Virus record (IMG/VR): IMGVR_UViG_3300033233_001970
Length of the DNA stretch: 64,000 bases
Direction: 5' to 3' (one strand)
From: a virus
Taxonomy: Duplodnaviria; Caudoviricetes
Shown: positions 3,081-63,724 of the stretch, in pieces
Layout: each line of letters begins with the position of its first letter
Position numbering within the stretch: the stretch's first letter is position 1
The notes under the pieces: generated by a model
Told to the model about the DNA's origin: nothing
The model's input: only the letters and a program-made list of their open reading frames with translations
Databases searched by the model: none
Translations under genes and position numbers: made by a program

Positions 3081-3392
3081 CTATTTTTCATCGCGAAGCG
3101 TCTGGTACGCCGCCCACGACAAGACGCCTACCTCGACGGCGCCCGTCGCGGCAACCGTGTAGTAAATGAGCTCTTTTCCGCGAAGTCCGGCAATAAACAG
3201 CCCTCCCGCGACAAGGGCTCCACGGCAAATCATCGAGCCCACGACGCGCGCGACGTCAACGTAGAGCTCGTGTTTGCCCTGCATGAGATCAATGGCGGTG
3301 CTTCCCGAAGGAAGACCTGGTTTGCAAACGAGATCGCTGTTTGCCAAAGAAGGATTTCGCGCGCGTGCGCGACGGCGCCTCATGATTTGCAC
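3081..3392 (-). CDS. membrane protein with basic leader ending RARNP
   Basis: RRRRARARNP leader, two hydrophobic segments. Confidence 0.55.
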   Translation of the reverse strand: MQIMRRRRARARNPSLANSDLVCKPGLPSGSTAIDLMQGKHELYVDVARVVGSMICRGALVAGGLFIAGLRGKELIYYTVAATGAVEVGVLSWAAYQTLRDEK

Positions 3393-3850
3393 CCAACTCC
3401 GTTAACGATCTCGATTTTCCACCACGGCGGGTACCGTTCGCTGTCGATGCGACGCATCATGGCGTCGATCGTTCTTCGCGGAACGCCGTGAAGACCGCGC
3501 GACGCTGCCGTTTCCGGGTCGCACCGCACGCGGATCACTTTCGACATGTACCCAAACGCCGCCGCGAGCGCCATGTAGGGAGCGATCTCGACGGTCGACG
3601 TGTTCGTGTTGTCGACGACCACCACATGAATGCCGGACTCGATGGCGTCCAGAAAATTACGAAGGCATTCGGCGTGCGCTTCGCCTAGTTTGGATACGTC
3701 GAATTTGTATCCTTGAGGCGTTTCGAAGAAATGATCGGCGGACACGACACGCGTGCGATGCCCTTGCCCCTTGGCCGCCGCCGCGATTTGTTTCGCGAGC
3801 GTGCTTTTGCCGGAGCCGGAGACGCCTTGCATGACGATGACTTCTTTCAC
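3380..3850 (-). CDS. AAA_33-type P-loop kinase (polynucleotide kinase/N4BP2-like)
   Basis: GVSGSGKST Walker A, VSADHFF, VVDNTN, HGVP motifs. Confidence 0.85.
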   Translation of the reverse strand: MKEVIVMQGVSGSGKSTLAKQIAAAAKGQGHRTRVVSADHFFETPQGYKFDVSKLGEAHAECLRNFLDAIESGIHVVVVDNTNTSTVEIAPYMALAAAFGYMSKVIRVRCDPETAASRGLHGVPRRTIDAMMRRIDSERYPPWWKIEIVNGVGCKS

Positions 3851-3875
3851 GGACGAGACCTTTCGGCGGAGTATG

Positions 3876-4502
3876 TCATGGAAGTCGAACTGCTTTTTCT
3901 TCGGCTTTCGTCAGCACGACAGCCGGAAGTGTCTTAACGCCCATCCGAATCGCTTTGCCGATACGGTGCCATCCGTCGATTGGTAGAGCGCCGTACTTCG
4001 TCACGATGACGATGAGTGGAACGCGAAGTTTGATTACCTGATCTTCGACCGGAAACTCGAGATCGCGGTCAACTCGTTTCCAATCGATGCCGACGAGAGG
4101 AGCAAGCGGTCGCAGATCGATAACCTTGAAGGTGACGAGCTTGCGCTCCGGCTTGCTCGCCAGGATCATCTTGGCTTTGCCGATGTTCCAAGCGTCCTGG
4201 CCAAACCGAAAATACTCATGCGAATGCTCGGTCGCGTTCCAGTCGGCAGGATCCCAGCGCTGAGCAGGGTTTTGAGTCACGGTATTTCTCGTCGCAAGGA
4301 GTCCGATGAGCACGCCTGTGCCACCGCCGACAAGAATGGACGAAAGAGCGTGTCCCAGGATGCCCTTGCTCTTGTCTGGACCGCCGTACTCGTCTGAAAA
4401 CGACGCGAAGCCGCCCGCAACGACGCCTCCGGCCATCGCTAGGACGGCGCCCACGCCTGCCCAGACGCGTCCCGTAGGGTTTTCCATGGCTTCGGATGTC
4501 AT
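3876..4502 (-). CDS. ENP-membrane module fused to ParB/Srx-like domain
   Basis: MENP + two TM helices, QNP, then PLIV..IDGWHR..A..G..LPA ParB-like motif; ATGA overlap with upstream gene. Confidence 0.65.
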   Translation of the reverse strand: MTSEAMENPTGRVWAGVGAVLAMAGGVVAGGFASFSDEYGGPDKSKGILGHALSSILVGGGTGVLIGLLATRNTVTQNPAQRWDPADWNATEHSHEYFRFGQDAWNIGKAKMILASKPERKLVTFKVIDLRPLAPLVGIDWKRVDRDLEFPVEDQVIKLRVPLIVIVTKYGALPIDGWHRIGKAIRMGVKTLPAVVLTKAEEKAVRLP

Positions 4503-5710
4503 TTCTCGAGCTCCGCGCGCGTCGCGGCCACGAGCTCCTGTGTCATCTCCACAAATCGACGATAATGATCGGGCGTACGAAGCATCCAATCCGGCATGCT
4601 CGTGTAGTCCGGTGCTTTCGGGTGCGCGCTGTAGATGATGACCGCGCCATCGGGACCGTGAATCGGGACGTGCCACTCGCCTTTGAATTCGAAGTTCGGC
4701 GGGAGCATGACCACGAAGCCTTCGGGTGGAATGGAGATGCCTTTGTGTGGTCGATGGAGCTGAAAAACGGACAAATCGAGAAGGAACGGGATGCTCTTCG
4801 TCTTACCGACGATGACAAGATGACCTGGGAATCCTGTGCCGCCGTCGCACGATTCGTCGATAATGAGAATGCGGGCTTTTTCGGGGTCGGGCTGAGCGAC
4901 CGCGCCGCTCGCCCACGCGTAATACGCCGCGTTCATCGCCGCCGTGCGTGTGGGCATGGGCCGTCCCGCGATTCCAAACGGCTTCAACGCTTCGATGCCG
5001 ATTTTCGTGGCGGCGATACAGCAGTCGGGCTTGAAACACTGGCCGAGGACGCGCCACGAGACCTTCGCCATGGCCTCGAGCACCTGAAACGGATCGGTTT
5101 TGGGATTCTTTTTCGCGTAAGAGCCATACGGCCCTTCGCCACGACCTTTGATCCCGTGCGCGGTATAAAGGACGCGCTTGCGATCAATGACTTGTCGAAT
5201 TTCTTCTTTGATGGCCTCGTCCGCTTCGAAGTTGATAGCACCGCCAAGAACATTTAGACCCAACCAGCTTACTCCGTTCCAGGATTGATCCGGAAAATCA
5301 CTATAGCTATTGTCTGACAAATCAATGCGCTCGTAGATTCCTACCGAAATGATCGAAACTTGTTTCGGATTATTGAGGTTGAACCAAACCTCGCCAACCA
5401 GATCGTCGTTGCTGTGTCCGTCATCTCTTGCATAAAGGAAGTTTTTTCGCATCCATCGCATTGCATTGTTTTCGATGATGAGCTCGTCCTGAACAAGCTG
5501 ATCCCACCCTTCTGGCGTGAGCTCTCCCGCTGCGTTTAGCCATCCGTCTTTTTGGCCGCGAAGTCGATCGGCCGCGTCACCATATTTTAGGCCGAATCTT
5601 TCGTCGGCATTGGCTTCGATCACGTCTTCGTGATCGAAGTGCAGATCAAACGAAACAGAGCGCTCGTTTGGATCCGTGGGATTGCGACGGTAGCGCGGAA
5701 CGGTGTTCAC
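4499..5710 (-). CDS. two-module NP-tagged protein; C-terminal transglutaminase/papain-like domain
   Basis: YRRNP leader; KKNP joint followed by DCCIAAT...FPGHLVIV...LLDLS (Cys-His-Asp spacing). Confidence 0.55.
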   Translation of the reverse strand: MNTVPRYRRNPTDPNERSVSFDLHFDHEDVIEANADERFGLKYGDAADRLRGQKDGWLNAAGELTPEGWDQLVQDELIIENNAMRWMRKNFLYARDDGHSNDDLVGEVWFNLNNPKQVSIISVGIYERIDLSDNSYSDFPDQSWNGVSWLGLNVLGGAINFEADEAIKEEIRQVIDRKRVLYTAHGIKGRGEGPYGSYAKKNPKTDPFQVLEAMAKVSWRVLGQCFKPDCCIAATKIGIEALKPFGIAGRPMPTRTAAMNAAYYAWASGAVAQPDPEKARILIIDESCDGGTGFPGHLVIVGKTKSIPFLLDLSVFQLHRPHKGISIPPEGFVVMLPPNFEFKGEWHVPIHGPDGAVIIYSAHPKAPDYTSMPDWMLRTPDHYRRFVEMTQELVAATRAELEK

Positions 5711-6237
5711 GACTTCACCGGACGGCCGCCATGGTACGTCACGCGCTTTCTCAGTGGCGTCGCAGGCGGAGGCGTTGTCACCTCGAAGATTTTGACCTCA
5801 TCGCTACGCACTTTGCGTCCGCTCGTGCCGACGAACTCGTAGCCATCATCACTATCATCATTGTTTTCATCGTCGCCAAGATCTGCGTTGACGGGATCCG
5901 GATCATCGATGTTGTCGGCGAAGTAGCCCTCCCATCCCATTTCTTCCGCAAAATCTGCCGCGTAGTCGAGCGCCTCGTCTTCGGCGTCGGCGTTGACGAG
6001 AATGCCGTAGTTCGTGTGATCGTCGAAGCTGACGAGGTACGAACGGCGCCACGCTTTATGTTCTACGTTCGCGTACTGCCACTCTTTGCTACGCTGACCA
6101 ATCAAGCGAAACGGTCGCTCGTATTCGACATTCTCGACGATGACTTTCTTGCCGCCGACGTAGTGACTCTCATTCTCATCGCCAATGACCTTGGGCGGAG
6201 CTGCTTTCGGATTTCGGTAGCGCGGAATAGCGTTCAC
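5707..6237 (-). CDS. acidic hypothetical protein with YRNP leader
   Basis: MNAIPRYRNP leader paralogous to MNTVPRYRRNP of neighbour; GTGA coupling. Confidence 0.65.
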   Translation of the reverse strand: MNAIPRYRNPKAAPPKVIGDENESHYVGGKKVIVENVEYERPFRLIGQRSKEWQYANVEHKAWRRSYLVSFDDHTNYGILVNADAEDEALDYAADFAEEMGWEGYFADNIDDPDPVNADLGDDENNDDSDDGYEFVGTSGRKVRSDEVKIFEVTTPPPATPLRKRVTYHGGRPVKS

Positions 6238-6824
6238 CGGTACCTCCGCCCACGGCCTCGCCGTCTTGCGCGCGATAGCGCGCTACGTTCGTATTCCTCT
6301 TCGGTCCAGCCTGCTTCATGGAAGAGACGAAGCGTGGCGTCACGTTGATCGGCACAAAACTTCCGCGCGGTCGCTTCGTCTCCGGTGAAAAAGAATGGAT
6401 GCCCGCAGAAGACATTGATCTCGAGGCTCGCGGCGAGCGCTTGAAGCTCGCGATCGAGCTCGCGAAGACGCCTCCACACCTCGTCGAAGGTTTGTCGCGT
6501 TGGGTTGGGACGCACTAGCCGACCCATTTGGTACTTGGCGCGCTTTCTTGGCGTCCATCCCTTGGGGAAAAGTACAAACCGATGGCGTCCGCCCGCGAGC
6601 CGCGTCCAGCAAGCGTCGCAAGGACGTTTCGAGAAATCGCGGATGCCCTCTTCGGTTTCGCTGTCCCAGTTCGGTGAGATGTGCCCGAGCGTTCCGAGGC
6701 GCTCGGCGCCTTCCTCTATCTCGCGAACACGCTCCGGATCGTCGATACCCGAAAGATCGCCGTTGACGGCGTACATGGTGCAGTCTTGGCAAAGCCACAG
6801 CTCGTGGGTGTCATGCACGCTCAT
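6234..6824 (-). CDS. phage Zn-binding protein (CxDC...PCDAC) + RPNP module
   Basis: LCQDC...FSKRPCDAC..LAGGRH pattern typical of small phage proteins. Confidence 0.6.
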   Translation of the reverse strand: MSVHDTHELWLCQDCTMYAVNGDLSGIDDPERVREIEEGAERLGTLGHISPNWDSETEEGIRDFSKRPCDACWTRLAGGRHRFVLFPKGWTPRKRAKYQMGRLVRPNPTRQTFDEVWRRLRELDRELQALAASLEINVFCGHPFFFTGDEATARKFCADQRDATLRLFHEAGWTEEEYERSALSRARRRGRGRRYR

Positions 6825-7444
6825 GACGCGCGAGCCCTCAGCAAACCAAGTTCATGCATCGACTTGTATCCGTCACGCGCGACGACGACATGATCGACGA
6901 GCGGCGCGCCGACTTCCTCGCCCGCACGCCGGACGCGACGTGTGAAATCGATGTCTTCTGGACTTGGTGTCGGATCGCCGCTCGGGTGGTTGTGCACGAG
7001 AATGAACGCGCTCGCGGCTTCTCGTAGCGCGATTCGCAAGGGATCGCGTACCGACACGTGAAGACCGTGAAGTCCACCCGAAGCAATGCGGCACGCCGAC
7101 CGAAGCACATTGCGGCCGTCGAGCGCCAAAAGCCACAGTTCTTCGAAATCAAGAGGGACGAGCCGAGGCTTGGCCCACGCGTACACCGCTTCGGCTTCAG
7201 GAAACGAGTATCCCTCTGCACGCGATGCGCGCTCGAGCGCTTTGCGACCTAATTCGAGCGCAGAAACGATGCGCACGGCGGCGGCCTCGCCCACCGAAGC
7301 CGCGATTTCGCCCGTTCCTGCGCGCAAAAGACCGTCGAATCCGCCCATGTCGTGAAGCAGTTGGAGCGCGCGACGCTCTCCGATTCCGCCGACGATGGCG
7401 ACGAGCTCGATCTCGCCGATATTGGAGATCGGGTTTTTGCGCAT
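6821..7444 (-). CDS. radC: RadC family JAB/MPN-domain protein
   Basis: HhH-like region, ALELGR, E..WLLALD, HNHPSGDPTPSPEDI, LVDHVVV. Confidence 0.92.
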   Translation of the reverse strand: MRKNPISNIGEIELVAIVGGIGERRALQLLHDMGGFDGLLRAGTGEIAASVGEAAAVRIVSALELGRKALERASRAEGYSFPEAEAVYAWAKPRLVPLDFEELWLLALDGRNVLRSACRIASGGLHGLHVSVRDPLRIALREAASAFILVHNHPSGDPTPSPEDIDFTRRVRRAGEEVGAPLVDHVVVARDGYKSMHELGLLRARAS

Positions 7445-7456: not shown

Positions 7457-7780
7457 TCAGAGGGTAATGAGATCCGAAACGGGCATGCATTCGTCGAGCA
7501 TGTTGAGTGCGTATCCTTCTGGACACGCCCCGCCCACCGGCGCTGTTTTTGTGCCTGCTTCGCCGCCGCCAGGCGTGACATTAGGACCAGGAGCAGGTGT
7601 TCCGCCTCCTCTGCCGCCTCCTGTAGAAACAGGGGTTGGTTGCGGCGTAGAAGCAGGAACGACTGTCGCTTTCGACCTCGAAAACCACCACACGAGCCCG
7701 CCAACGACGGCTGCGCCGCCCGCGACCCAAAGAGCGGTCGCGAGCGGAGGTGAGATCGGATTTTCTTGGAATTGAGCCAT
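7457..7780 (-). CDS. single-pass membrane protein (ENPISPP family)
   Basis: QENPISPPLATALWVAGGAAVVGGLVWWFSRSK then Pro/Gly linker and small Cys domain. Confidence 0.75.
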   Translation of the reverse strand: MAQFQENPISPPLATALWVAGGAAVVGGLVWWFSRSKATVVPASTPQPTPVSTGGGRGGGTPAPGPNVTPGGGEAGTKTAPVGGACPEGYALNMLDECMPVSDLITL

Positions 7781-7784
7781 GCGC

Positions 7785-8291
7785 CTACGACTGGCCGATC
7801 ATCTGCCAGAACGGAACGGTGGTTGCCGTGAGCGTTGCGCTGGCCGTTTCGAAACCGGCGCCGCCGAGCTTGGTGTCGTCGGCCGTCGCTTCGACCTTCG
7901 CTGCGCTCGGGCCCGTGTTCGGATCGTCCTTCGGCCAATCTGCCGGAAGCGGAGTGCCGTCCACGAGATTGATCGGCGGCGAACCGGCGTACATCTTGGT
8001 CTTCGTGACCGAAAACGGCGCCGCAATCGCTTGCTCCGTTCCTTGATCGAGTTTCGAAAGATCAGGAATGCTGAAGCGGTATACTTGACCCGAGAGCAGC
8101 GGTTGTCCCTTCGGAACGCGCGCCCATGTTCCCGTCGCTGCGGGCGTTGTTGCAGGCGCAGGCTTGACGGTTGCCCCCGCAGCCTTCGGTCTCGAGAACC
8201 ACCAAACGAGGCCACCTACAGCGGCAGCGGCGCCCGTGATCCAAAGAGCAGTTTTGACGGGAGGTGAAATGGGATTTTCGTCGTCGAACAT
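7785..8291 (-). CDS. single-pass membrane protein (ENPISPP family, WPxDD domain)
   Basis: MFDDENPISPPVKTALWITGAAAAVGGLVWWFSRPK. Confidence 0.75.
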   Translation of the reverse strand: MFDDENPISPPVKTALWITGAAAAVGGLVWWFSRPKAAGATVKPAPATTPAATGTWARVPKGQPLLSGQVYRFSIPDLSKLDQGTEQAIAAPFSVTKTKMYAGSPPINLVDGTPLPADWPKDDPNTGPSAAKVEATADDTKLGGAGFETASATLTATTVPFWQMIGQS

Positions 8292-8300: not shown

Positions 8301-8750
8301 TTAGAGCTTGGGTGCGGCAGGACGAAGCACGAGCACAGCTACGGCCGTTCCGGCAGGAAGCGCTGAAGCGACTGTATAAGGCGCCGTACCGATGTACTTG
8401 CCCTGAAAAGCGACCCCGCGTGCGCTCGTGTAGGGCGGAGGCAGCGGAGCGCCCTGGGCGTACTGCCCTTGATCGAAACCGAGACTGGCCATGGATAGCT
8501 TGAATTTGGCAACATCCCCGTCGGTCCAGCCTGCGGGCGCGTCGAATGCCAAGGCGAAGTAATCGCCAGGCATGACGGTACCTGAAGCGGCCTGCGTCCA
8601 CGCCATCGTGCCACCGGAACCGCCGCCGACCAGAGTGGCTTTTGCGGGCTTCGAGAAAAACCAGACGAGGCCGCCGAGAGCAGCGGCAGCACCGGTGATC
8701 CAAAGAGCGGTTTTGACGGGGGGTGAGATGGGGTTTTCGTCGTCGAACAT
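8301..8750 (-). CDS. single-pass membrane protein (ENPISPP family)
   Basis: MFDDENPISPPVKTALWITGAAAALGGLVWFFSKP. Confidence 0.75.
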   Translation of the reverse strand: MFDDENPISPPVKTALWITGAAAALGGLVWFFSKPAKATLVGGGSGGTMAWTQAASGTVMPGDYFALAFDAPAGWTDGDVAKFKLSMASLGFDQGQYAQGAPLPPPYTSARGVAFQGKYIGTAPYTVASALPAGTAVAVLVLRPAAPKL

Positions 8751-9733: not shown

Positions 9734-10243
9734 ATGAATACTCCGCACGGACTCGGCCAGGCGCCCCAACCTTCTGCTCCTACGCCCACATGGGTCTGGG
9801 TCTCGGTAGGCGCCGTTGTCCTTGCCGAAATTGGTGCAGCGATTTGGTTTTTCAACCAACCGAAATCAAATCCAGCTACTCCGCGCTCGAGCTATTGGGA
9901 CATCTACGAGCTCAAGATCACGCCCGTCAACAAAAACACGAGCATCACGGATGCGATGGGAATCCCAATCCGTGTTCGGCACGGCGACTGGATCATCCGT
10001 TCGCTTCTCGCGGTGCCCAACGAATACGATCCGCAAAAACCGCGCACGATCACCTCCAAGCTCGAGCGCATCGAGCACAGCAAAAACACAGCGATGTACG
10101 AAGCGGGCAAGCTCGCCACCGCGTACGCGAACTTCAACATCCGCAACCCGAATCCGGCACGGGTGACCGACGAGAAAGGCAAATGCATCTTCTCTGTTGT
10201 GGGCGACCCGAGCACCAACAGAGCGGTCGAAACCACGTGCTGA
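9734..10243 (+). CDS. TM anchor + NPYTP-family domain
   Basis: TM helix, KSNPATP..WDIYELKI...RNPNPARVTDEKGKC. Confidence 0.7.
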   Translation: MNTPHGLGQAPQPSAPTPTWVWVSVGAVVLAEIGAAIWFFNQPKSNPATPRSSYWDIYELKITPVNKNTSITDAMGIPIRVRHGDWIIRSLLAVPNEYDPQKPRTITSKLERIEHSKNTAMYEAGKLATAYANFNIRNPNPARVTDEKGKCIFSVVGDPSTNRAVETTC

Positions 10244-12714: not shown

Positions 12715-13401
12715 ATGCGTCGGAAGATCCAGACGACGAACAATGCCGGCGCAGACGCCGTCACCTACGCCAAGGCTCGCGATGGACTTTATTGGTATTT
12801 TCGTCGCTACGGCATCGACGAGAGCCGGTTCGGATGGCAGATTGAGCCGCTCGGAGGAAAGCTGGAGATCAAGTACGGAAGCAAAGTGAAAATCTATCGC
12901 GTGCCGGCGGCTCCGCTTCTCGAGCACGTGCCTGATGATCCCGCTTGGGGTTACCGTGGCATGTCCTGGGAAGAGTGGAAATTCATCCGCATCGAGAAAC
13001 GTATCGAGAGCCTGTACGCGCACAACTTGGGCGAAGAGCAAACAGGTTTCACATTCTTCGGCAAGGCAAGCCAAGCAGAATCCTACGCTTCGGGTTTCGC
13101 GCCGCTGCCGTACTTGCCGGCCTTTCGCCGACCAGGTGTTGTTGTCGCTGTACCGCGAGAGCTTTTGCTTACGCACAAGGACAGGCCCAAGGCCATTCCG
13201 GGCTCGGAGTTGGCCGCGTTCGGGGCGTTGCCAGCAAGTGTCATTGGCGGCGTGTGGTACCTCATTCCGAATCGCATTCGGTTTGGGGCGCTAGACATTG
13301 TACTCGATCTTCTCTCCAACGTTACGCGATGGACGGACGGCAGCCGACACAACCCAAGCGTGAGCTACATCGTGTATCATGAGGCGTCCCATGCGACGTA
13401 A
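12715..13401 (+). CDS. hypothetical protein, ADP-ribosyltransferase-like fold possible
   Basis: GYRGMS..E...TFF...A.SYA....VV.V...E pattern. Confidence 0.45.
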   Translation: MRRKIQTTNNAGADAVTYAKARDGLYWYFRRYGIDESRFGWQIEPLGGKLEIKYGSKVKIYRVPAAPLLEHVPDDPAWGYRGMSWEEWKFIRIEKRIESLYAHNLGEEQTGFTFFGKASQAESYASGFAPLPYLPAFRRPGVVVAVPRELLLTHKDRPKAIPGSELAAFGALPASVIGGVWYLIPNRIRFGALDIVLDLLSNVTRWTDGSRHNPSVSYIVYHEASHAT

Positions 13402-14191
13402 CCCAGAAATCAAAAAACTTCTAGGCACCCTCGACAGCCCGCCAGGCAACGGCGGATTCGTCTACGAGGTTCAGGGAGACTCCACAACCTGGCACGAGCT
13501 TGAATGGATTGTCCGTAAAGGAAAAAAGTGGCGGGTCTACACGGTGCCTTTGGATCAAGAAATTCCTCACTGGGGCAATCTTGCCGAGGCCGCAGGATCC
13601 GTCGGGATCAGTTTCGTCGAGCTCGGCAGAAGATTCGAGAGCGATGATCCGATGGAGCGAGCGAACGCATGGGAGATTTACGGCGATTCCGAAGGCTGGG
13701 ATGAAGTCGATGACACGTGGGAGGAGCTCGACGCGGACGAAGTCAACGACCGGTACTCGCTCGCCGTACCTGTCAAAGATCCAGTTCCGACAAAAATCCC
13801 GCCGCTCGACAATTTCACCGATGCGTACATCACGGCCGCGCTCTGGTCGACGAACGACGAATCAACACCGGCGGGCGGTGTACCGCTCGATCAGAACTAC
13901 GGCATTCACGACATCCACCGCGACACGCTCAAGAAGATGATCGAGGACTGCGAGCGATTTCAGGCGATGAACATGCACGATCTCGATCTCGCGTATCAAC
14001 ACAGCGGCGGACACGGCGGGTACGCTCCAGGCAACGCGGGCCATGATTTTTGGTTGACGCGCGGTGGCCATGGCACAGGATTCTGGGACCGTGGACTTGG
14101 CGACGTCGGCGACCGGCTCACGAAAGTGTCGGAAAAGTTCGGTGAATTCAATCTCTACGTCGGCGACGACGGGAAGATTCACGGTTCGTGA
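13391..14191 (+). CDS. MRRNP-tagged two-domain phage protein
   Basis: C-domain AYITAALWS...AGHDFWLTRGGHGTGFWDRG recalled as a recurrent phage family. Confidence 0.75.
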   Translation: MRRNPEIKKLLGTLDSPPGNGGFVYEVQGDSTTWHELEWIVRKGKKWRVYTVPLDQEIPHWGNLAEAAGSVGISFVELGRRFESDDPMERANAWEIYGDSEGWDEVDDTWEELDADEVNDRYSLAVPVKDPVPTKIPPLDNFTDAYITAALWSTNDESTPAGGVPLDQNYGIHDIHRDTLKKMIEDCERFQAMNMHDLDLAYQHSGGHGGYAPGNAGHDFWLTRGGHGTGFWDRGLGDVGDRLTKVSEKFGEFNLYVGDDGKIHGS

Positions 14192-18596: not shown

Positions 18597-19697
18597 ATGC
18601 GTCGCCGTTCGAACCCTTACACGTCGCCGTGGACAGTGATCGAATACCGAATCACCCGTCGCCTGATCGACGGGATCGTGTATCTGGTTCTTCTCGAGCT
18701 CGTACAAGAGCCTGGCGAAAAACCGACGACTGCGGTGTACACGTGGCACGCTTCTAGAGCCGACCTCATAAAAACAGCAAAATTTACCATACAAAACGCA
18801 GCGAGGCGCGAGAGAAACAGTCCGATTCCGGTTCGCTTGTTCGATGAGCGCGGCCAATGCCTCTACGCCGCGCGTAACAAGATGATGCCGCCGAGCCACG
18901 ACCCGAAATGGGGCTTGATCGGACAACGTCCTACGCCGTCGTGGGAAGAAATTCCGTGCGACGCGCGGCCAAACCCGCATGCCAGCAGGAAGCAGAACCC
19001 GATCTACTTCGACGATCTGCCGCTCGCGGAACGTCAGCGACACGCACAACTGTGGCGTGCGTCAATCGCGAAGCTTCGCGATCTGCCGTATCCGTTTCAG
19101 GCGACGTTCGACGGCGAGCGTATCACCGTGCTCGGTCGCGTACGGGATTTCGAACCCTACACAAGTCATCCATGCCAACAAGCTGAAGCTACCGACGAAT
19201 CGATGATGGTTCGTGGATCGGATGGCAAGAAGTTCATCGTCTTCGGCCACAGCTTGTTCGTCGGCGACCAACGCCTCGTGTACCAGTCCGGCTACCGCCG
19301 CCGTCCTGTAGTTGATCCTTTGGGACTAGGATGGAAAGAAAACCCCGTCGGCGTCTTCATCTACGATCTCGACGCGCTCGACAAGCTCGCGGCGATGGAA
19401 GGCCAGGATTGGCTCAAAGACGATCGTCGTATGTGGGAACGGTACCGTAGCGGCAATACAGCGCACGCGTTCGTAACGGCGTGGAAGTTCACACGCCATC
19501 TCTCGCCGGAAGATTCGATCTATTGGAAAGACTATTTCGCGGGCGAGACAGGTGTGGAGCTCGGCGTCATCTACGGTAACGGCGGCTACGCGAGGTACGC
19601 CGTATCCAGCGAAGGTGAGATTCGGCTCGATCCAGGATCGACACGACCAGAGAAGGTAGCTCGAGCTCTCGGGCTAGGGTTTCGGGTGCCGCGATGA
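18597..19697 (+). CDS. NP-delimited multimodule protein (NPYTP domain first)
   Basis: RRRSNPYT, RPNP, KQNP, KENP joints. Confidence 0.75.
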   Translation: MRRRSNPYTSPWTVIEYRITRRLIDGIVYLVLLELVQEPGEKPTTAVYTWHASRADLIKTAKFTIQNAARRERNSPIPVRLFDERGQCLYAARNKMMPPSHDPKWGLIGQRPTPSWEEIPCDARPNPHASRKQNPIYFDDLPLAERQRHAQLWRASIAKLRDLPYPFQATFDGERITVLGRVRDFEPYTSHPCQQAEATDESMMVRGSDGKKFIVFGHSLFVGDQRLVYQSGYRRRPVVDPLGLGWKENPVGVFIYDLDALDKLAAMEGQDWLKDDRRMWERYRSGNTAHAFVTAWKFTRHLSPEDSIYWKDYFAGETGVELGVIYGNGGYARYAVSSEGEIRLDPGSTRPEKVARALGLGFRVPR

Positions 19698-21378: not shown

Positions 21379-22248
21379 GTGGCGTCAAAATTCAAATACG
21401 AACCATTTGTCCGTGTCGGCGCCATGTCGTCGGACGATGCACGCGATTTCGTGGTTCGTGAATTCGGAGTGGATCCTGCGCGGATCTATCTCATCAAGGA
21501 CGGTGGCCCCGCCAATCCGGAACGCTACAAGCCTGGCGCAAGGGTATGGCACGTCTACATCGGCAAGAAACCCGTGGGCGGGCACCTGTACCGCGTGAAA
21601 GAGAACCCGCGTTACGAAAAAGGCTTCCCGATCGGCCATCATCAAATCATCGTGGACAAACTCGGCGTCGTCTACGACGGCCGCGACGAGATCGAAGCGG
21701 GCGCCAAGTACGGCGAGTACATTGCGCTCTCGATGTCAGGCGACGGCTACCGCGTCATCTGGCTCGTTGATGGTGAGGTCGAGGATCAGTACATTCCGGA
21801 GCTCGAGGAAGAGATCAAGCTCGCGTGGTGGGACGAACACATCAAGAAAAATCCGTACACGCCGCCGTCCTTGAAGTGGCCCGTCTACGAGTACAAGATT
21901 TCACCCGCATGGGGCTACCGAGTCAAATCAGGAGATCCGGACGAGTGGCAAATCTGGGAGCTCGAAAAGCGCCCTGGAGAGCGCGCAAAAATACGAATCG
22001 TCGGCGGCGAGCAGCCGCGCTCCATCCATGGGAACCGAGAACCCTTGTGGAAGGTGAAACACAGAGCGATTGATCGAGCCATCGATTTGGCCATTCGTCA
22101 CGCGACGAACATGGATCCGCGAAATCCAAATCCCATCCGTATTCTCGACGAGAGCGGCCGATGTTACTCCGTCGTTCGGCCGGCGTACCGTGGCGCCGCG
22201 ACCATCGATGAGTGCGATCCTCCGGCACGACCAAACCCTTCGAAGTGA
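21379..22248 (+). CDS. NP-delimited multimodule protein with one NPYTP domain
   Basis: KENP, KKNPYTPP..WPVYEYKI...RNPNPIRILDESGRC, RPNP. Confidence 0.75.
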   Translation: MASKFKYEPFVRVGAMSSDDARDFVVREFGVDPARIYLIKDGGPANPERYKPGARVWHVYIGKKPVGGHLYRVKENPRYEKGFPIGHHQIIVDKLGVVYDGRDEIEAGAKYGEYIALSMSGDGYRVIWLVDGEVEDQYIPELEEEIKLAWWDEHIKKNPYTPPSLKWPVYEYKISPAWGYRVKSGDPDEWQIWELEKRPGERAKIRIVGGEQPRSIHGNREPLWKVKHRAIDRAIDLAIRHATNMDPRNPNPIRILDESGRCYSVVRPAYRGAATIDECDPPARPNPSK

Positions 22249-49216: not shown

Positions 49217-50413
49217 ATGGCGTGGATCGACATCTCCGCTTCCGGACTTTTGAAGGACGGCGGCGTGTACCAAATCGGCATCGTCACATCTCCCACGTGG
49301 ACCGTCGACATCGTCAAGACAAAGTTCGAGTCCGCCCCTCCTGGTCTTCCGGGTGGCGCCTTCAGCATCGATTCGGTTACGCCGGGATCTTCAAGCGGTA
49401 CCGTCAAAAGCTGGAAATTCCTCGGCACGTGGCACGGTGCGCCCGTAGTCGTAAGTCGGAAGCCTGCGGACACGCCGGACGTGCAGTACGCCGCCGTCTT
49501 CGAACAGGTGCCCGACCCTCCGCCTCCTCCGCCGAAGCCCAATGCGGAGTCCGACACGTCACTTCCCGTCGCCGGAGGCAGTTCGAAGTCATGGCCCGTG
49601 GTGCTCGGGCTTCTCGCGTTGGGAGGGCTCCTGGGCGGCGGAACGTATTTTTTCCTGAAACAAAAAGCGTACGCGACGAGCAATCCGAAACGCGACTATC
49701 CTTACATCTCTTCTCCAAGCGGTAGGTACATTCTGTCACGAGACGGAAAAATCGTGACGCGCGGTACCGAACAAGAAATATGGAAGTACCTGCACACCAC
49801 GCACGGCTACAGCGTCGAGCACGCAATCAAATACGAAGGCTACAAAATACAGCCCGATTTGACGCTCCCGCCGAAGCGTAATCCTGTCGAGCCCTTCGAA
49901 TACGAGCGTTACCAGCATGGTGGCGTTGACGTCGAGATCAGTCTGAGTCGTCTCGACCCATGTACCAAGTATCCCGAAATGCGCAAAGCTCTGGGCGATC
50001 TCGCTTGTCCAGGTGATTTGTATTACGGGCGAGCCATTTCGCCTACGGGTCACGAGCTCGTGGTGACTGCACGAACATCGACGGGTGCTCGCCGCATGAT
50101 CGAAGCCGAGGTCGATCGACGTTGGCTCGGATCGCGCCATCTCGCGAATCCCGTTCGTTACGAAACAACGTTCGACCACCACGGGGTTCCCGTTCACGTT
50201 CACCGTGAAGACATCGACGGTCGGGCCACGTACTGCGCCGACTACCGCGCTGTCGAAATGACTCTTCCTGGCTCTGGCGGCGTCGTGTGTGGTCCCGACA
50301 AGTCTGAAGCCATGAACGAGGCCAAAAGACGTATCGACGCGCTCGGGTGGCGCAGTCGAACCATGGCGAGTCGGGCGCCGCGATTTCGAACACGTTCACG
50401 ATCAGGATATTGA
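49217..50413 (+). CDS. N-domain + TM + three NP-delimited modules
   Basis: TSNP, KRNP, LANP joints; last two modules HicB-like. Confidence 0.75.
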   Translation: MAWIDISASGLLKDGGVYQIGIVTSPTWTVDIVKTKFESAPPGLPGGAFSIDSVTPGSSSGTVKSWKFLGTWHGAPVVVSRKPADTPDVQYAAVFEQVPDPPPPPPKPNAESDTSLPVAGGSSKSWPVVLGLLALGGLLGGGTYFFLKQKAYATSNPKRDYPYISSPSGRYILSRDGKIVTRGTEQEIWKYLHTTHGYSVEHAIKYEGYKIQPDLTLPPKRNPVEPFEYERYQHGGVDVEISLSRLDPCTKYPEMRKALGDLACPGDLYYGRAISPTGHELVVTARTSTGARRMIEAEVDRRWLGSRHLANPVRYETTFDHHGVPVHVHREDIDGRATYCADYRAVEMTLPGSGGVVCGPDKSEAMNEAKRRIDALGWRSRTMASRAPRFRTRSRSGY

Positions 50414-50416: not shown

Positions 50417-51142
50417 ATGACTATACGCGCCAGATACCACGTCGCTTTCGCTGCCGACAGTTACCCAGTACCTCGCATTGCTGGTCCTCCTGGTCCTCCA
50501 CCCGTAGGCGATCCGAATACGGTCGCCTTCTTCAGTCCAGGCGGAGTGTTGACCGACAACACCGCGCTCACGGCGGGCCAAGTTGACGCCTTTCAGCGAC
50601 CGCAAATTCATGATTTTCGCCTCGGGCCTACCAACCGTGGCGCGGTGTATCGCCTTGGCCGGTGGCAAGCCGACGGTGATCCAACATCGGTTACGTCCGA
50701 GGGCTACGTCACATACGGACCGAACGCGCTCGGTACTGGACCGAGCCCCACCGACGGTGGATTAGGTTTCTACACACCAAACTCGTTCGGGGTGCTCGAC
50801 ATCATCAACGGCGTCAACGGCAACAACACGTTTTACCTGTGCGGGTTCGAGGACGGGGGACCGGCCGCTCCGTTCGGTCTCGACGGCTTCATCGTCAACG
50901 ATAACCTCGCGGCGCCAATCTTTTGGGTCAAGCGCTCAGACAACTCAATCAACGCACGAACGCTTCGCGTCGGGTTCACCCCGGCAACGACCGCGAAATG
51001 GTCAGCAGGGGCAGGGGCGCCCAACGGCGTTGTCGTTGGTAGCCCTGGCGATCTCTACTCGAACACGGCGGGCGGTGCCGGCACGACATTGTGGGTCAAG
51101 GAGGCCGGCGTTGCGACGAACGTCGGATGGGTCGGTAAGTAA
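50417..51142 (+). CDS. fibre-like protein (FAAxxYP leader)
   Basis: C-terminal GAGAPNGVVVGSPGDLYSNT.GG...TLWVKE.G....GW typical of phage fibre ends. Confidence 0.7.
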   Translation: MTIRARYHVAFAADSYPVPRIAGPPGPPPVGDPNTVAFFSPGGVLTDNTALTAGQVDAFQRPQIHDFRLGPTNRGAVYRLGRWQADGDPTSVTSEGYVTYGPNALGTGPSPTDGGLGFYTPNSFGVLDIINGVNGNNTFYLCGFEDGGPAAPFGLDGFIVNDNLAAPIFWVKRSDNSINARTLRVGFTPATTAKWSAGAGAPNGVVVGSPGDLYSNTAGGAGTTLWVKEAGVATNVGWVGK

Positions 51143-51145: not shown

Positions 51146-51991
51146 ATGACCACACGAGCCAGACAGCACGTCGCCTTCGCTGCCGACAACTACCCCACGC
51201 CTCATTTCGCGAGCCCAGGCCCTTCCGGCGATCCGAATGCCGTCGCGTTCTTCAGCCCGACAGGTGCCGCGCTCATCGACAACCCGCAATTCATCGTCGA
51301 CAACTCTGATCCGAATAACCTCCGCGTTTACATCAACCAAACGGGCCCCGTACCCTACGCGCCTGCGACTCCGAGCGGCGCGGGGATGCAGTACAGCAGC
51401 AATGTCGCTGGCCGCGCTGCGCTTCGTCTCTCGCAGTATGGAAACAACGGCGGGGCACAGAACGTCTCATTCTTCAAGTCGCGCGGAACCAACGTCGGAG
51501 ACGAGGCCGCTCTTATAGCCGGCGACACCATCCTGAACCTCACCGGTGCTGGCGTCGCGGGTGACGGCCTGTCGGTTCCGCTCGCCGCCATTTTTGACGC
51601 CATCATCCCTGCGGGCGGCGTCTTCGCGCAGAGCATCTCGCCGGACTTCCGCTGGCAGCTCGCAAAGAGCGCCATCAACTCGCGTCGCGAGGTCTGGCGC
51701 ATGGTCGGTCTGACCGGCGACTTCGTGATGAAGAACGCCGGTCAGCGCATTCTCATCAAAGAGGGCGCGAACGCGATGCAGGGCGTGGCAACAAACGGCG
51801 CCACTGTCCTGAACACACTCATCACGGCGAACACGCGCATCTCGCTCACGTGGCAGGACGGCGGAGGGGTGCCGTCTGGGGCGCCCTACGTGTCCGCGCG
51901 CGTCGTCGGAATAAGCTTTACGATTCAGAGTACGAACGTCCTTGATGCCGGCGTGAACGTCTTCTGGCAGCTCTGGGAGCCCGCGCCCTGA
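51146..51991 (+). CDS. fibre-like protein (FAAxxYP leader)
   Basis: paralogous N-terminus to upstream gene; F.KSRGT....GD motif of tail fibres. Confidence 0.7.
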   Translation: MTTRARQHVAFAADNYPTPHFASPGPSGDPNAVAFFSPTGAALIDNPQFIVDNSDPNNLRVYINQTGPVPYAPATPSGAGMQYSSNVAGRAALRLSQYGNNGGAQNVSFFKSRGTNVGDEAALIAGDTILNLTGAGVAGDGLSVPLAAIFDAIIPAGGVFAQSISPDFRWQLAKSAINSRREVWRMVGLTGDFVMKNAGQRILIKEGANAMQGVATNGATVLNTLITANTRISLTWQDGGGVPSGAPYVSARVVGISFTIQSTNVLDAGVNVFWQLWEPAP

Positions 51992-53538: not shown

Positions 53539-53886
53539 ATGGCTGCGAGAAAAAGTGTTGCGTACCGTGGCGGAAAGCCCGTCCTCGCGTCATCGCAGGG
53601 ATGGGTAGCGACCTACGTCGAATGGATCTCCACAGAAGACATTTTCGAAGAAGGTTTAACCGGAAGAGAACACGTCGTTCTTCTGGAGAAGCCGCAGCAT
53701 CGAGCCAAAACGCTCAACAAGCTTCTTGAAAAATTATCGTCGCAGTACGGGTTTCTTCCGCCAACCAACAAAGACGCGTGGGTCACTCAAAGCACCGATC
53801 CTAATTCCGAGCCCATGGCCGGTATGCCAACGATCGTTGCAGGAACGGCAACACCGTTTGCCACCGCGAGCGCGTTGCCGTTCTGA
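53539..53886 (+). CDS. hypothetical protein, probably 3'-truncated (tail reads antisense through neighbour)
   Basis: GAGG RBS; last ~27 codons overlap 53787..53927 on opposite strand. Confidence 0.5.
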   Translation: MAARKSVAYRGGKPVLASSQGWVATYVEWISTEDIFEEGLTGREHVVLLEKPQHRAKTLNKLLEKLSSQYGFLPPTNKDAWVTQSTDPNSEPMAGMPTIVAGTATPFATASALPF

Positions 53887-55111: not shown

Positions 55112-55880
<769 letters not shown>

Positions 55881-55924: not shown

Positions 55925-57076
55925 TCACGAAGTGCAAACTTCGACGTCGGCCCCGCGATGTTCGACATTTACGATTTCGTTTGCCGGATGCATGCGCACG
56001 TTGAATCGATACGTCGTTCCGTGCCAGACCTCGATCGTCTGGTAACCAATTGACTTCGACATATCGTGTTGGAGCTCGATCGTTCGCGCGACAACATCTT
56101 TCGGAAGGCTCGCAAACGTCGGGAATTTCCAAGACGAACAGGCGGGCGCCGACTTGGACGATCGTGAAGCAAAAACGATAGCCGCGATTCCGGCGATGCC
56201 TAGAACAATGCCGCCGACAAGCGCGGGATTCATCGAGATGGGGTTCGCGGCAGGTGGACCTTCTTCATCTTTCTCGGATTGGGCCCATCGACGACCTTTC
56301 GCAGTCATCGCGTAGTAAACGTACGGGTACGTGCTCCGCGTCTTCAATTGCCAACGAACCTCGCCTGATATCCATCGACGACCTTCAGCCGTAAGCTCGA
56401 GAATGGCTGGGGAAGCGCCAATGGCGCCCTTGTGAACTTGTCGCGGCGTCCGTACGGAAATCAACCCACGTTGACGCATCCGCTTGATGAGGTATTTGGC
56501 GACCTGACGACTGACGCCACGATCGACAATTTCCCGCATCGTGATTTGGCCATGACGTTCTTCGATGAGTTTCTTAACCTGTTCGGTAACAGGATCGGCA
56601 ACCATGGCTCGCTCGAGGTAACCATGCTTGATGAACGTACTAACAACAACAGCCGCAGCCGTATCTGATCGGCCGGCAACGCGCGCCAGATCCTCAGTAC
56701 GGAACGGACCGACCGCATCAAGCTCGATGATGGCTGTTTTATAGCGCTGAATGGCTTGGCGGCGCGCAGCTTCGTGCTTCGTGTGCCACCTCTCCGGCAT
56801 TTGAAGACGCTTCGGTACCGGCGCTGGCGGCGGAAGCATCTTGTGAACAGGCTTCGGTCGCAGTTGCGGAAGGAACGGTGTCCGCAACTTCTCGATGATC
56901 TTTTTCCCGAGGAGTACCGCTTCGGCCGCGTTCTGGACGTTGCAAATCACCGAACCTTTGGGTCCTACTTTTCGGAGATCAACGCACCATTTGTGGAAAG
57001 AGACGTCGTACCAAATGGCATAGGGAACGCTCTTGTACTGATACTCGGCGTACGATCCAGGAAGGATAGCCGGCAT
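55925..57076 (-). CDS. HicB-like + nested winged-helix region + ANP-TM module
   Basis: ITMREI..GVSRQ....IKRM..RGLI...LTAEGR wHTH; PAANPISMNP + TM. Confidence 0.65.
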   Translation of the reverse strand: MPAILPGSYAEYQYKSVPYAIWYDVSFHKWCVDLRKVGPKGSVICNVQNAAEAVLLGKKIIEKLRTPFLPQLRPKPVHKMLPPPAPVPKRLQMPERWHTKHEAARRQAIQRYKTAIIELDAVGPFRTEDLARVAGRSDTAAAVVVSTFIKHGYLERAMVADPVTEQVKKLIEERHGQITMREIVDRGVSRQVAKYLIKRMRQRGLISVRTPRQVHKGAIGASPAILELTAEGRRWISGEVRWQLKTRSTYPYVYYAMTAKGRRWAQSEKDEEGPPAANPISMNPALVGGIVLGIAGIAAIVFASRSSKSAPACSSWKFPTFASLPKDVVARTIELQHDMSKSIGYQTIEVWHGTTYRFNVRMHPANEIVNVEHRGADVEVCTS

Positions 57077-58607: not shown

Positions 58608-59657
58608 CTATACGCTTGGTGGTGGCGGAGGCGGCTGAACGAGCTGCCATACACGAATACCTGGAATGATCGGAAGTGTGACGGTATTTGGAACGCAGTT
58701 CCCATTACCGTCATCGTGCGTTCCAGACGAACAAGAAGTGTCTCCGCCCGTCGTAGGCACCGTCAGCGTAAAGCGTGCGCGATCGGCTCCGGTATCCGAC
58801 GGATCCCACGTTGGATCGGCCGACACGGCTGCCGCGTTGTGGGCAAAAATGATCTGTTTCGCGATGTCATCGTTGGCCGGCACGCTAATGCGGTAAGTCG
58901 CGCCTTCTTGAAGTACAACTGCCTGAGCCGAGTCTACGGGTTGCCACGTTGGGGACGGTGGCTGCGGAACCACGATAGGCGGCGTCTGGGGTGGAGGTGG
59001 TGGAGGCGGCGGTTGGCGTTGCGGCGGCGCGTTCCATCCAGGTGGCGTATTCTCCAGCACGATCGGTTGCGGCGCGGGCGTCGCCGCTTCCGCCATCTTC
59101 GGCTTGAGAAGGAAGTACATCCCGAGCCCTACCGCCGCAGCGGTGGTCGCGAGGGCGAGCGTGAGCGTGGTGTTCGTGACAGGGTTCGCGCGTGCCAGCG
59201 GGTAAAGGTGCACTGACCACGGATGCCCGAGCTCGTAGTAGAAGCCGAGGCTCTTGAGAAATTTCTTGAACTTCTCTTGCTCCACGTACGCTCGTTCGGT
59301 CGATCCCCAGTTGAGGAGTTCGTAAAGCGGCCCCTCGGTCGTGATCGTGATGACGGCGTCGTTGCCGTATGGTTCGCCCCGCGCGCGCCAGGCTGCTTGC
59401 GTGTAGACACGCGCGTCGTAATCGAGACTATTTTGTTTGAGCCAATTTTCTACGCGCGTAACGAGCGGGTGGTGCGGCGGCACGTCGTAGTGCGGATTCG
59501 AGAGATGTTTTGGGTAGTGTTTCTGGATCGAGCTCATCGGAGCGCCGATACGCTTTGCAACCGCACGTGCCTCAGCCTGTGTGTCGTACGGTCCGTGATC
59601 CATCGTATTCGTGATTACGAACCACTTACGTTTACCAGGGGATTTTCGCGCAGTCAT
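58608..59657 (-). CDS. NP-delimited multimodule membrane protein
   Basis: GPYDTQAEA; LSNP; ARANP + TM + poly-Pro + WPxDD-like domain. Confidence 0.75.
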   Translation of the reverse strand: MTARKSPGKRKWFVITNTMDHGPYDTQAEARAVAKRIGAPMSSIQKHYPKHLSNPHYDVPPHHPLVTRVENWLKQNSLDYDARVYTQAAWRARGEPYGNDAVITITTEGPLYELLNWGSTERAYVEQEKFKKFLKSLGFYYELGHPWSVHLYPLARANPVTNTTLTLALATTAAAVGLGMYFLLKPKMAEAATPAPQPIVLENTPPGWNAPPQRQPPPPPPPPQTPPIVVPQPPSPTWQPVDSAQAVVLQEGATYRISVPANDDIAKQIIFAHNAAAVSADPTWDPSDTGADRARFTLTVPTTGGDTSCSSGTHDDGNGNCVPNTVTLPIIPGIRVWQLVQPPPPPPSV

Positions 59658-60074: not shown

Positions 60075-60100
60075 CATCGTTTTTGATCCGAAAACGCCGA

Positions 60101-61386: not shown

Positions 61387-61387
61387 G

Positions 61388-61801: not shown

Positions 61802-62031
61802 GAGTTATCTCCTTGCCGAACGGCAACGATTCTAACTCTTTTTGGAAAATGAGATCGATCGGACTTTCTCGGCGACGCGGTTCGCGCGTTCGAGGGTCTT
61901 GACGCGCATCTTCTTGTTGGCCTCGACCGGCGATTCGTCTTCGTCACGATCGTCCTTCTTGCGAGCGCCGGTGATCTGCTGCTCGTTCACCTCACTCGTC
62001 GGAACTTCGGCTTTCATGGTCGAAGATGCCA

Positions 62032-62592: not shown

Positions 62593-62623
62593 CGAGAGAT
62601 TCTACCTCACGGCCGGATCCGAC

Positions 62624-63064
62624 TCACGCAGCTTTCTTCTTCGCTCGATCGTGCAGCTCCAGGATCCGAACGAAAGCGCTGTTGGTCAGCGCGTTTTTTC
62701 TCTTAGACTGAATGAGCTGTGTGGTGTCGTAGGCCGAAACGCCAAGCGTTTCGAGCGCAATTCCGGTGACGAGCCCGGACCGGTTTCTCCCCATTGCGCA
62801 CGTCGTTAAAACTCGAGCTCCTGCCCGAAGTCTCGCCGCGACATTCTCGCCGGCTTGAATCGCAAGACGGATTTCTTGCGGCGTAGGGTGATCCGTATCA
62901 TCAAGCGGCACGTGGAGAACCGTGACACCAGGATAGGTGCTCGCCGGAAACTGAAGCTCGTACGCGCAGAGGACAAGCACGTCGAAAATACCTCGGAGCT
63001 CGGTTCCTGGTATCGGGAAAGAACCTTGGGCTAAGACAGGTTCGATGATGTACGAGTATCCCAT
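62624..63064 (-). CDS. dual-specificity/tyrosine phosphatase family protein
   Basis: PLDD general acid; VLTTCAMGRNRSG (CX5R); AL.N..F. Confidence 0.85.
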   Translation of the reverse strand: MGYSYIIEPVLAQGSFPIPGTELRGIFDVLVLCAYELQFPASTYPGVTVLHVPLDDTDHPTPQEIRLAIQAGENVAARLRAGARVLTTCAMGRNRSGLVTGIALETLGVSAYDTTQLIQSKRKNALTNSAFVRILELHDRAKKKAA

Positions 63065-63073
63065 GTTCCCCTC

Positions 63074-63724
63074 CTACTTAGCAGCTTGCGGCAAAAGCGC
63101 ATCGATCTGCTCGTGCACATGTGCCAAAAGATCGTCGCGCGTCGTCCCGTTGACGGAAAAACCTTCGTTCCCGAACGCGTACCTCGCCGTCCATGTGCCG
63201 CCCGAACGGCGTATGTCGAAAACGATTCCTTTGTAGAAAAGGCGCTCAGTCGGCAACGGCCACAGATACGCAAGGAGCGCTCCGCCACCCGTCACGATGG
63301 CGGCAATGCTGCCGATCCAGAGTGCAGCTCTGGCCGGCGCTGAAAGCGTGTCGGGATGGAAAATCGCTTGGTCAACGACGGGAGGCGTGACCGACGGCGC
63401 GAGCGGATTCGCGCGACGAATGGAGTGCGAATCTATGAATCGTATGGCTCCATGAGTTGCTTCGTCGATCGTAGCTCCGTAAAATTTGTTGGAGCCAGAG
63501 CCGACGATAATCGCTTCGAAGTTCGCTTTTGCGCGAAAAGCGTGAGGCAATTGATGCATTTGCCGGTACTGCGGCGTGAACGACCGACCTGGACGTACTT
63601 CGATCTTTGCGCCACGGTAGTAGTCAACGTGCACAGGTTTCGCGATCGGATTTGCGCGACGAAGCTGCGAACGGCTCAGAAGAACCGGTACGCCTTTGCC
63701 GATGTACGTGACCCGCTTCTTCAT
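63074..63724 (-). CDS. RRANP-delimited protein: two HicB-like domains and a TM
   Basis: LRRANPIA, IRRANPLA joints. Confidence 0.75.
   Translation of the reverse strand: MKKRVTYIGKGVPVLLSRSQLRRANPIAKPVHVDYYRGAKIEVRPGRSFTPQYRQMHQLPHAFRAKANFEAIIVGSGSNKFYGATIDEATHGAIRFIDSHSIRRANPLAPSVTPPVVDQAIFHPDTLSAPARAALWIGSIAAIVTGGGALLAYLWPLPTERLFYKGIVFDIRRSGGTWTARYAFGNEGFSVNGTTRDDLLAHVHEQIDALLPQAAK

Follow-up and report, generated by a model that had tools for sequence, protein, structure and literature searches.

The DNA studied here is a stretch of 64,000 nucleotides from a virus of the Caudoviricetes (IMG/VR record IMGVR_UViG_3300033233_001970), which we refer to in its entirety as the window, and the element in question is the dipeptide Asn-Pro (NP), which recurs throughout its proteins at the starts and joints of modules. 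The window is densely coding with a guanine-cytosine (GC) content of 58%, and its source is a huge phage: identical proteins are also encoded by a metagenomic contig that reaches 246 kb, the longest contig seen, and by a 119.6-kb contig of an ENA assembly. A gene call trained on the window's own codon usage gave, after hand correction of three genes (new starts at 41109 and 18597, and the added gene 6234-6824), 96 genes encoding 19,612 residues. Pfam, with which about 60 of the 96 proteins were scanned, annotates few of them, namely radical SAM, PTH2, AAA_33 kinase-like, DSPc phosphatase and RadC proteins, together with a GDSL lipase, a CHAP plus DUF192 protein and an Rv2525c-like glycosidase. 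Around 31 proteins have a predicted membrane helix. Two protein queries against IMG/VR returned no relatives, and a phage collection gave no match by DNA or by protein. An earlier note on this DNA had counted about 60 NP sites in about 39 open reading frames and had read them as cleavage, docking or virion-targeting tags that would let unrelated modules be strung together into polyproteins.

Asn-Pro enrichment

Between positions 3081 and 63724 there are, on either strand, 104 in-frame NP sites in 55 of the 96 genes, where 45 would be expected from the composition of each protein, a ratio of 2.3. On the gene call as it stood before hand correction, 102 sites were counted where 44.7 were expected (z 8.6), and shuffling the residues within each protein 2000 times never gave as many, so the comparison with shuffled proteins that the earlier note had suggested as a check comes out clearly on the side of enrichment. 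When all dipeptides are ranked NP stands first by a wide margin, the runner-up being DE (z 4.2). The motifs cited in the note were each found at their coordinates and the pattern that it described holds; sites with the residues that it listed at position -1 number 80, in 42 genes. The radical SAM, PTH2, AAA_33 kinase-like and DSPc phosphatase proteins contain no NP, just as had been observed.

The signal lies in the peptide rather than in the DNA. The pentamer AAYCC occurs 102 times in sense frame 0 against 45 expected (z 8.9), with no excess in the other two sense frames or on the antisense strand, and this confinement to the coding frame argues for selection on the peptide and leads us to reject a DNA-level motif. 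As in the earlier note, the sites draw on both Asn codons and on each of the four Pro codons, and all eight codon pairs are present. AAT is the minor Asn codon, yet it stands in two thirds of the NP sites; codon bias was rejected as a cause, because NNC-CCN codon pairs are avoided in general and the AAT preference results from this. That avoidance is strong and genome-wide (GAC-CCN 7/572, GCC-CCN 3/556, CCC-CCN 1/256), the NNT-CCN counterparts reaching 10-15% (for example GAT-CCN 71/485), and AAC-CCN is far commoner than the remaining NNC-CCN pairs.

These observations bear on the idea that NP marks a signal in nucleic acid or in translation, with AAYCCN serving as microhomology for in-frame exchange, or with the Asn-Pro codon pair imposing a pause that aids the stepwise folding of modules. 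Such a signal would suit the fact that module exchange falls exactly at NP points (see below), and the large share of AAT-CCN despite the minor status of AAT. However, neither the use of all eight codon pairs nor the restriction of AAYCC to one frame is in keeping with it, and the AAT preference is accounted for otherwise. Five degenerate bases would be insufficient to guide exchange by homology, and a pause at the start of a module would come with the previous module still partly in the ribosome tunnel. We regard this explanation as highly improbable.

Two further candidates were set aside, namely deamidation avoidance, given that Asn-Ile is depleted rather than enriched, and a helix capping box (NP-x-E/D/Q), given that E, D or Q at +2 shows no excess by eye. 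The local context of NP is weak but real, with R/K at -2/-3, P/E/S at -1, V/I at +1 and P at +3.

Position of the NP sites

Three contigs bearing short phage-type RadCs (L003, L004 and L008), which have gene order or modules in common with the window, were taken through the same pipeline. In line with the earlier note, NP is found to favour three kinds of position. It lies within residues 2-13 of 12 window proteins (2.2 expected); it lies within three residues of 14 of the 54 internal homology-block starts defined between the window and related contigs (4.0 expected, p ~3e-5); and in 13 cases it lies at most 25 residues upstream of a predicted membrane helix (4.4 expected). The ends of homology blocks show no excess like that of the starts (7/67 against 3.6), and NP after membrane helices occurs 7 times against 4.7 expected. 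When the window is compared only with itself, block starts are not enriched (2/17 against 1.6), so the signal at joints stems from the comparison across genomes.

The leaders that precede an N-terminal NP are 1-11 residues long, several of them only 1-3 (M-NP, ME-NP, MR-NP, MRK-NP). Gene 13391-14191 (+) opens with MRR-NP (13400-13405), the stop codon of the upstream gene being embedded in the Arg-Asn codons, and gene 37433-38242 (+) opens with MR-NP (37439-37444), where the upstream TAA lies inside CGT-AAT. In gene 39910-40572 (+) the leader is MRK-NP (39919-39924), and a further E-NP at 40411-40416 stands seven residues ahead of a C-terminal membrane helix. Other short leaders are MRRRSNP (18597), the PRYR(R)NP pair (4499 and 5707) and RRANP (63074).

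Ahead of membrane helices a recurring form is MFDDE-NP-ISPP followed directly by the helix (8271-8276, -), with paralogues at 8730-8735 and 7757-7762; the MFDDENP motif was verified in the genes at 7785 and 8301. The same ENP(I/L) element is present in the relatives, proteins of L003 and L004 having ENPIS or ENPLS ahead of membrane helices. Gene 55925-57076 (-) has AA-NP-ISM-NP directly upstream of its membrane helix (56225-56245), and gene 58608-59657 (-) has RA-NP eight residues upstream of one (59181-59186).

Among the multi-seam proteins, gene 32868-34202 (+) contains SS-NP, AA-NP and VA-NP (33516-33998), whilst gene 49217-50413 (+) contains TS-NP (after a membrane helix), KR-NP and LA-NP (49682-50152), which bound segments of 66, 89 and 88 residues. 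Further seams are QPNP (60553) and KKNP (37057); the labels 'ART' and 'TGase-like' that had been given to the two sides of the former were unconfirmed by Pfam.

The NPYT module family

About 30% of the NP sites fall in a single multi-copy module of around 100 residues with two nearly invariant NPs, which starts with NP(Y/W)TP..W and has RNPN(P/D/A) ahead of a Cys-bearing hairpin. It is carried by the genes at 18597, 19694 (three copies), 21379, 22347, 41109 and 9734. At 18597 alignments place a copy right after the leader MRRRS (18612-18971, +). Gene 19694-20905 (+) holds three tandem copies that each open at NP (19961-20299, 20300-20605 and 20606-20902; 19961-20902 overall), gene 21379-22248 (+) holds one at 21850-22233, and gene 22347-23387 (+) one at 22584-22898, an upstream copy there being broken by a frame change. 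In gene 41109-42671 (+) the copy lies at the gene start (41142-41450), and the order is basic leader, module, NP, membrane helix, CHAP, NP (42090-42095) and DUF192; in gene 9734-10243 (+) the copy follows a membrane helix (9869-10240).

The module belongs to a rare family, a profile search finding 49 members among 1.84 billion representative proteins. In an alignment of 33 sequences N11/P12 and N88/P89 are at least 90% conserved and the residues upstream are variable. NPNP, NPNA and NPND are all present in the module, and the variants RSPNP and NSPIP also occur.

The frame change concerns the gene ending at 23387. Its ATG at 22258 opens a module (MRP-NP-YTPP..W), which about 25 codons later resumes in the -1 frame, the switch falling at a short A-run near 22333-22338. 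The MRPNP start described in the earlier note is therefore present, but in a frame that differs from the rest of the gene. The change between 22258 and 22350 may reflect a misassembly, a gene that is broken or a site of frameshifting; quadruplet decoding between 22258 and 22347 was rejected, since the shift is -1 and not +1.

Predicted structural setting

AlphaFold models of two proteins were considered, one being the third module copy of gene 19694-20905 and the other the RadC. The module model has a mean predicted local distance difference test (pLDDT) score of 89.6 and consists of five strands, a helix (67-84) and a terminal hairpin (92-104) that bears a conserved Cys. Its first NP (residues 11-12) sits in ordered coil that runs into strand 1, and its second (88-89) sits in an ordered loop leading from the helix to the hairpin (block pLDDT 94-97). 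Overall the NP blocks score 83-97 and are non-regular segments beside the ends of strands or helices. Given that the model places these NPs in ordered segments, both would be part of the fold, one of them internally. A Foldseek search of the module against the PDB gave no solved structure at E <= 0.001.

The RadC-like JAB protein is encoded by gene 6821-7444 (-), which has a Pfam RadC match and begins with the leader MRK-NP (7430-7435). Phage-type short RadCs begin ...RRNPV or ...RANPV, and no NP leader was found among about 110 bacterial RadC homologues. In the RadC model (pLDDT 90.8) N4 is predicted as a cap and P5 as the first residue of helix 5-8. An ordered Asn cap or turn followed by Pro, as expected of an Asx-Pro turn or a helix N-cap with Pro, is thus predicted in both models. 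The closest cellular RadC homologues are about 60% identical and come from Myxococcales/Polyangiaceae metagenome bins, which offers a weak hint at the lineage of the host.

Module shuffling at NP

The plug-and-play anatomy that had been proposed is borne out by the relatives: modules recur in other combinations, and the fused and split versions are joined exactly at NP. In gene 23390-24325 (+) a C-terminal domain follows VP-NP (23729-23734, residue 114), and in L004 this domain is joined via ...GGRPVR-NP to the homologue of gene 5707. Gene 3876-4487 (-) starts with ME-NP (4476-4481), and in L003 the homologous block lies inside a protein of 437 residues, where it follows LR-NP at residue 229. 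Gene 18597 ends in a segment that begins at KE-NP, and L004 has this segment as a stand-alone protein beginning MPLAVA-NP. Gene 32868-34202 shares with the relative P0147 only the segment between its first and second NP (residues 222-304), again placed after an NP, and P0147 also has a Pfam DUF3846 domain whose start lies 7 residues past an NP. For the three C-terminal segments of gene 32868, a search for shorter proteins that stand alone gave no homologue, and a near-length search gave one relative. The anchor 'E-NP-(I/L)-S..AK + membrane helix' is mobile, being found in unrelated proteins of all three phages. Since fused and split forms join at NP, the N-terminal leaders can be seen as the internal seam element with a Met placed just upstream.

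NP is conserved in 31 of 45 cases in homologue alignments, compared with 29% for other Asn residues. Where it is not conserved the homologues read SP, DP or AP and the Pro is usually retained. Asn is accordingly interchangeable with Ser or Asp beside a kept Pro, with the exception of the module family and its at least 90% conserved Asn. Judged from these alignments, replacement of Asn by Ser, Asp or Ala with the Pro kept would match the interchange expected of capping residues.

Relatives and controls

The NP excess is not confined to the window. L003, an 82-kb contig from an NCBI assembly (54% GC), has 2.82 times the expected number and L004, from soil metagenomes (62% GC), 2.23 times, with NP ranking first of all dipeptides in both; in L008 (67% GC) the ratio is 2.05 and the rank third. 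Newly read flanks of the L003 contig gave 18 NPs against 8.1 expected and 6 against 3.0, and among module-family proteins from many samples 31 representatives gave, in their parts outside the module, 34 against 12.4. As the excess recurs in relatives, it is a property of the phage lineage and not of the window alone.

Controls also show more NP than expected, with ratios of 1.25 in E. coli K-12 (50 kb), 1.57 in Myxococcus phage Mx8, 1.57 in phiKZ (dipeptide rank second), 1.40 in Ralstonia phage RSL1 and 1.68 in Mycobacteriophage Bxz1 (rank first). Their N-terminal NPs are in mild excess (14 against 6.3 expected), and the block-boundary test gave 0/12 in the controls, which have few paralogues. 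The 71% GC contig L007, a putative host-lineage control, had 3 NPs against 1.3 expected, Asn being too scarce there to inform. Duplication contributes as well: window residues with a detectable paralogue hold 31 NPs against 6.5 expected (4.8x) and those without hold 70 against 38.7 (1.81x).

It may therefore be asked whether a general NP bias of proteins, together with the counting of paralogues, accounts for everything and leaves nothing specific to the lineage. The control ratios of 1.25-1.68, the contrast between the unique and paralogous parts of the window, and the lack of enrichment of window-only block starts near NP would all be expected on that basis. However, the pooled ratio is 2.28 in the clade against 1.51 in the controls (p ~3e-5), N-terminal NP is three times as frequent in the clade (26/187 proteins against 14/302; Fisher p 5e-4), block starts defined across genomes coincide with NP well beyond expectation, and the excess was replicated in fresh sequence. 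We consider such an explanation very unlikely as a full account. Much of the NP signal is nonetheless a general protein property amplified by module duplication, with a modest lineage-specific surplus left over.

A second seam peptide and the question of a signal

A second element accompanies some of the seams. The peptide RKRVTYHGGRPV forms the C-terminus of gene 5707-6237 (5712-5751, -), and variants are found inside gene 6234-6824, where RP-NP follows (6513-6548, -), and at the N-termini of genes 53539-53886 (53548-53583, +) and 63074-63724. Written as KKRVTYxGGRPV, it is a basic peptide of 12 residues that either ends a protein, begins one (behind M or MAA) or immediately precedes an NP seam. 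The clade (window, L003, L004, P0132 and P0137) has 8 or more copies, and the five controls have none. Its specificity exceeds that of NP, and it would be the better candidate for a docking peptide. Gene 6234-6824 (-) itself encodes 196 residues with Cys pairs near the N-terminus and overlaps both of its neighbours by 4 bases.

This peptide is one of several points that could favour NP with its basic upstream context serving as a signal for processing or docking, recognised by a protease of phage or host or by a packaging or localisation partner, or acting through slow self-cleavage at Asn. The seams match the edges of independently recurring modules whose fused and split forms are interchangeable across relatives, a weak common context exists (R/K at -2/-3, V/I at +1 and P at +3), NP is kept far more often than other Asn residues, N-terminal NP has been gained recurrently between orthologues, and NP is in surplus over the controls. 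Of all Asn-X bonds, Asn-Pro is also the one at which the backbone breaks most readily, and it is scissile in FlhB/YscU and in reovirus mu1. Set against this, the removal of 1-3 residues, as in M-NP, ME-NP or MR-NP, would make a poor propeptide or targeting peptide, the module has its RNPN site within a predicted folded domain, and SP, DP and AP are tolerated in homologues. The only peptidase domain that Pfam detected in the scanned proteins is the CHAP cell-wall amidase/peptidase domain in gene 41109-42671. Moreover, maturation in giant phages is known to use A-X-E (PMC10052503), yet phiKZ-type phages show an NP excess. The short leaders, the NP within a fold, the predicted helix cap in RadC, the SP, DP and AP replacements and the lack of a detected protease speak against a simple cut site. 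The proposed cleavage and virion targeting are unsupported and in part contradicted, and docking is likewise unsupported.

We hold a processing or docking signal to be unlikely, and its more specific form, in which (K/R)-x(0-2)-N-P is a cut site, a self-cleavage site or a docking peptide that creates true polyproteins and acts as a 'module separator' code for bacterial or archaeal DNA viruses, to be quite unlikely. If the seam were cut or docked, the membrane-anchored modular proteins would become true polyproteins, and a seam read by a protease or docking partner would represent a processing code new to the polyproteins of DNA viruses, one that protein engineers could put to use.

Other features of the window

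Many genes have no Shine-Dalgarno sequence, and a TGnTAnnnT box resembling an extended -10 element lies 6-9 bases ahead of the ATG, for example in the genes at 1509, 2724, 28962, 44455, 49217, 52938, 38279 and 59659; box and missing Shine-Dalgarno sequence together suggest leaderless or near-leaderless transcripts. Two families combine a conserved N-terminal stretch of about 25 residues (MRHRDESIRRPEIDL...; M.xR...VAFAA.xYP) with unrelated C-terminal parts and contain few NPs. Their members are genes 1509-2666, 26419-28767 and 28962-30638 (-), genes 2724-3044, 24687-26087 and 55446-55853 (-), and genes 50417-51142 and 51146-51991 (+), and they resemble sets of tail fibres with a shared anchor.

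Discussion

We have documented the enrichment of NP in this window, its preferred positions, its conservation, the fusion and fission of proteins at it and its predicted structural setting. The explanation that we favour, with a probability of roughly 55%, is that mobile modules carry NP as a structural seam, in a lineage where such modules are shuffled, fused and split. The accessory proteome would be built of modules of about 65-120 residues and of single membrane helices, which are duplicated, fused, split and recombined among relatives, and many of the modules would have NP as their earliest conserved element. In structural terms, NP would provide an Asx-Pro turn, or else a helix N-cap with Pro next to it, and in this way terminate the upstream part of the chain and open a new fold. 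If NP opens a new fold, then a module that bears it could be placed behind any partner or directly after a start codon, and leaders such as M-NP, ME-NP and MR-NP fit better with 'module starts here' than with a removable propeptide. From this we infer a role in structural insulation and portability, rather than as a signal read by another protein.

On this explanation the enrichment would have three sources. The first is the general over-representation of NP in proteins. The second is the expansion of a module family with two invariant NPs, together with the mobile 'ENP(I/L) + membrane helix' anchor, and the third is an unusually high density of module boundaries.

Several observations weigh against a purely structural seam. 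The excess in the clade persists outside detectable paralogues, at 1.8-1.9x, so something specific to the lineage is unexplained. R/K at -2/-3 and V/I at +1 form a context for which a pure turn has no need. N-terminal NPs are both gained and lost between orthologues and yet remain frequent, which looks like recurrent selection for something. In addition, the structural setting has been taken from two predicted models only, neither of them a non-paralogous protein with several seams.

If the structural explanation is true, NP would provide a simple sequence rule for recognising module starts in the unannotated proteins of huge phages, which would help to split proteins without relatives into foldable units and to trace the exchange of modules between phages. 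Whether NP proves to be a structural seam or a signal, the controls carry a more general message. phiKZ has an NP excess whilst its relative SPN3US cuts after A-X-E, so an NP excess by itself is no evidence of a processing system.

Comparison with known systems

The closest described concept is that of the polyvalent proteins of phages and conjugative elements (Iyer, Burroughs, Anand, de Souza and Aravind 2017), in which many small, freely recombining domains are strung together, 2-15 unrelated conflict-related domains sharing a polypeptide, and whose repertoire includes a RadC-like JAB domain (PMC5512222). Processing of polyvalent proteins into their domains by an embedded zincin-like metallopeptidase has been proposed, with no seam motif described (PMC5512222). 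The stringing together of recombining domains is shared with the window. The differences are that most window proteins hold 2-5 modules, the majority of modules being without an assigned function, that many are membrane-anchored and that RadC is free-standing here; a zincin-like metallopeptidase of this type was not detected in the scanned window proteins or in P0147, which was also scanned. The NP seam itself is a new feature relative to polyvalent proteins.

Among the maturation motifs of phage heads, L/I-x-E of T4 gp21 and A-X-E of phiKZ and SPN3US are, like NP, short and degenerate, and occur in many unrelated proteins, often near the N-terminus. In SPN3US, a relative of phiKZ, head maturation has been mapped by mass spectrometry, the cut falling after A-X-E (PMC10052503). 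For motifs of the T4 and phiKZ type, mass spectrometry has shown the cut to fall C-terminal to Glu, with the loss of a propeptide tens of residues long, whereas the leaders in the window measure 1-11. The removal of about 10 residues or more that characterises such propeptides is not what the NP leaders present.

The N|PTH site of FlhB, YscU and HrcU (PMC3708937, PMC3052322) shares the same scissile dipeptide, and there the cut is protease-free, can lie in a loop and leaves the two halves together. Self-cleavage of this type needs a specific conserved fold along with NPTH, whereas the NP contexts of the window are many unrelated folds, and no FlhB-like domain was matched by Pfam among the scanned proteins. 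Reovirus mu1 is likewise cut at an Asn-Pro bond (N42/P43), and an Asn-Pro core marks the site of polypeptide separation in 2A/StopGo (D-V/I-E-x-N-P-G/P) and in the PPEP-1 targets V-N-P/P-V-P. With NPTH at 0/104 sites, NPG at 0/104 and NPP at 2/104, the FlhB, 2A and PPEP-1 types are excluded, and neither of the latter two applies to the window.

In our literature searches we found no description of an Asn-Pro seam or cut motif in phages, nor of its systematic use at module edges. The nearest structural likeness is to Asx-Pro turns and to helix N-caps with Pro at N1, such as the NPNA turns of the Plasmodium circumsporozoite repeats, and to the 'proline brackets' that flank interaction sites. What is shared is a capping Asn and a rigid Pro that together reverse the chain or start a helix. 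Such motifs are generic, and the window differs from them by the systematic use of NP at the N-terminal edges of shuffled modules.

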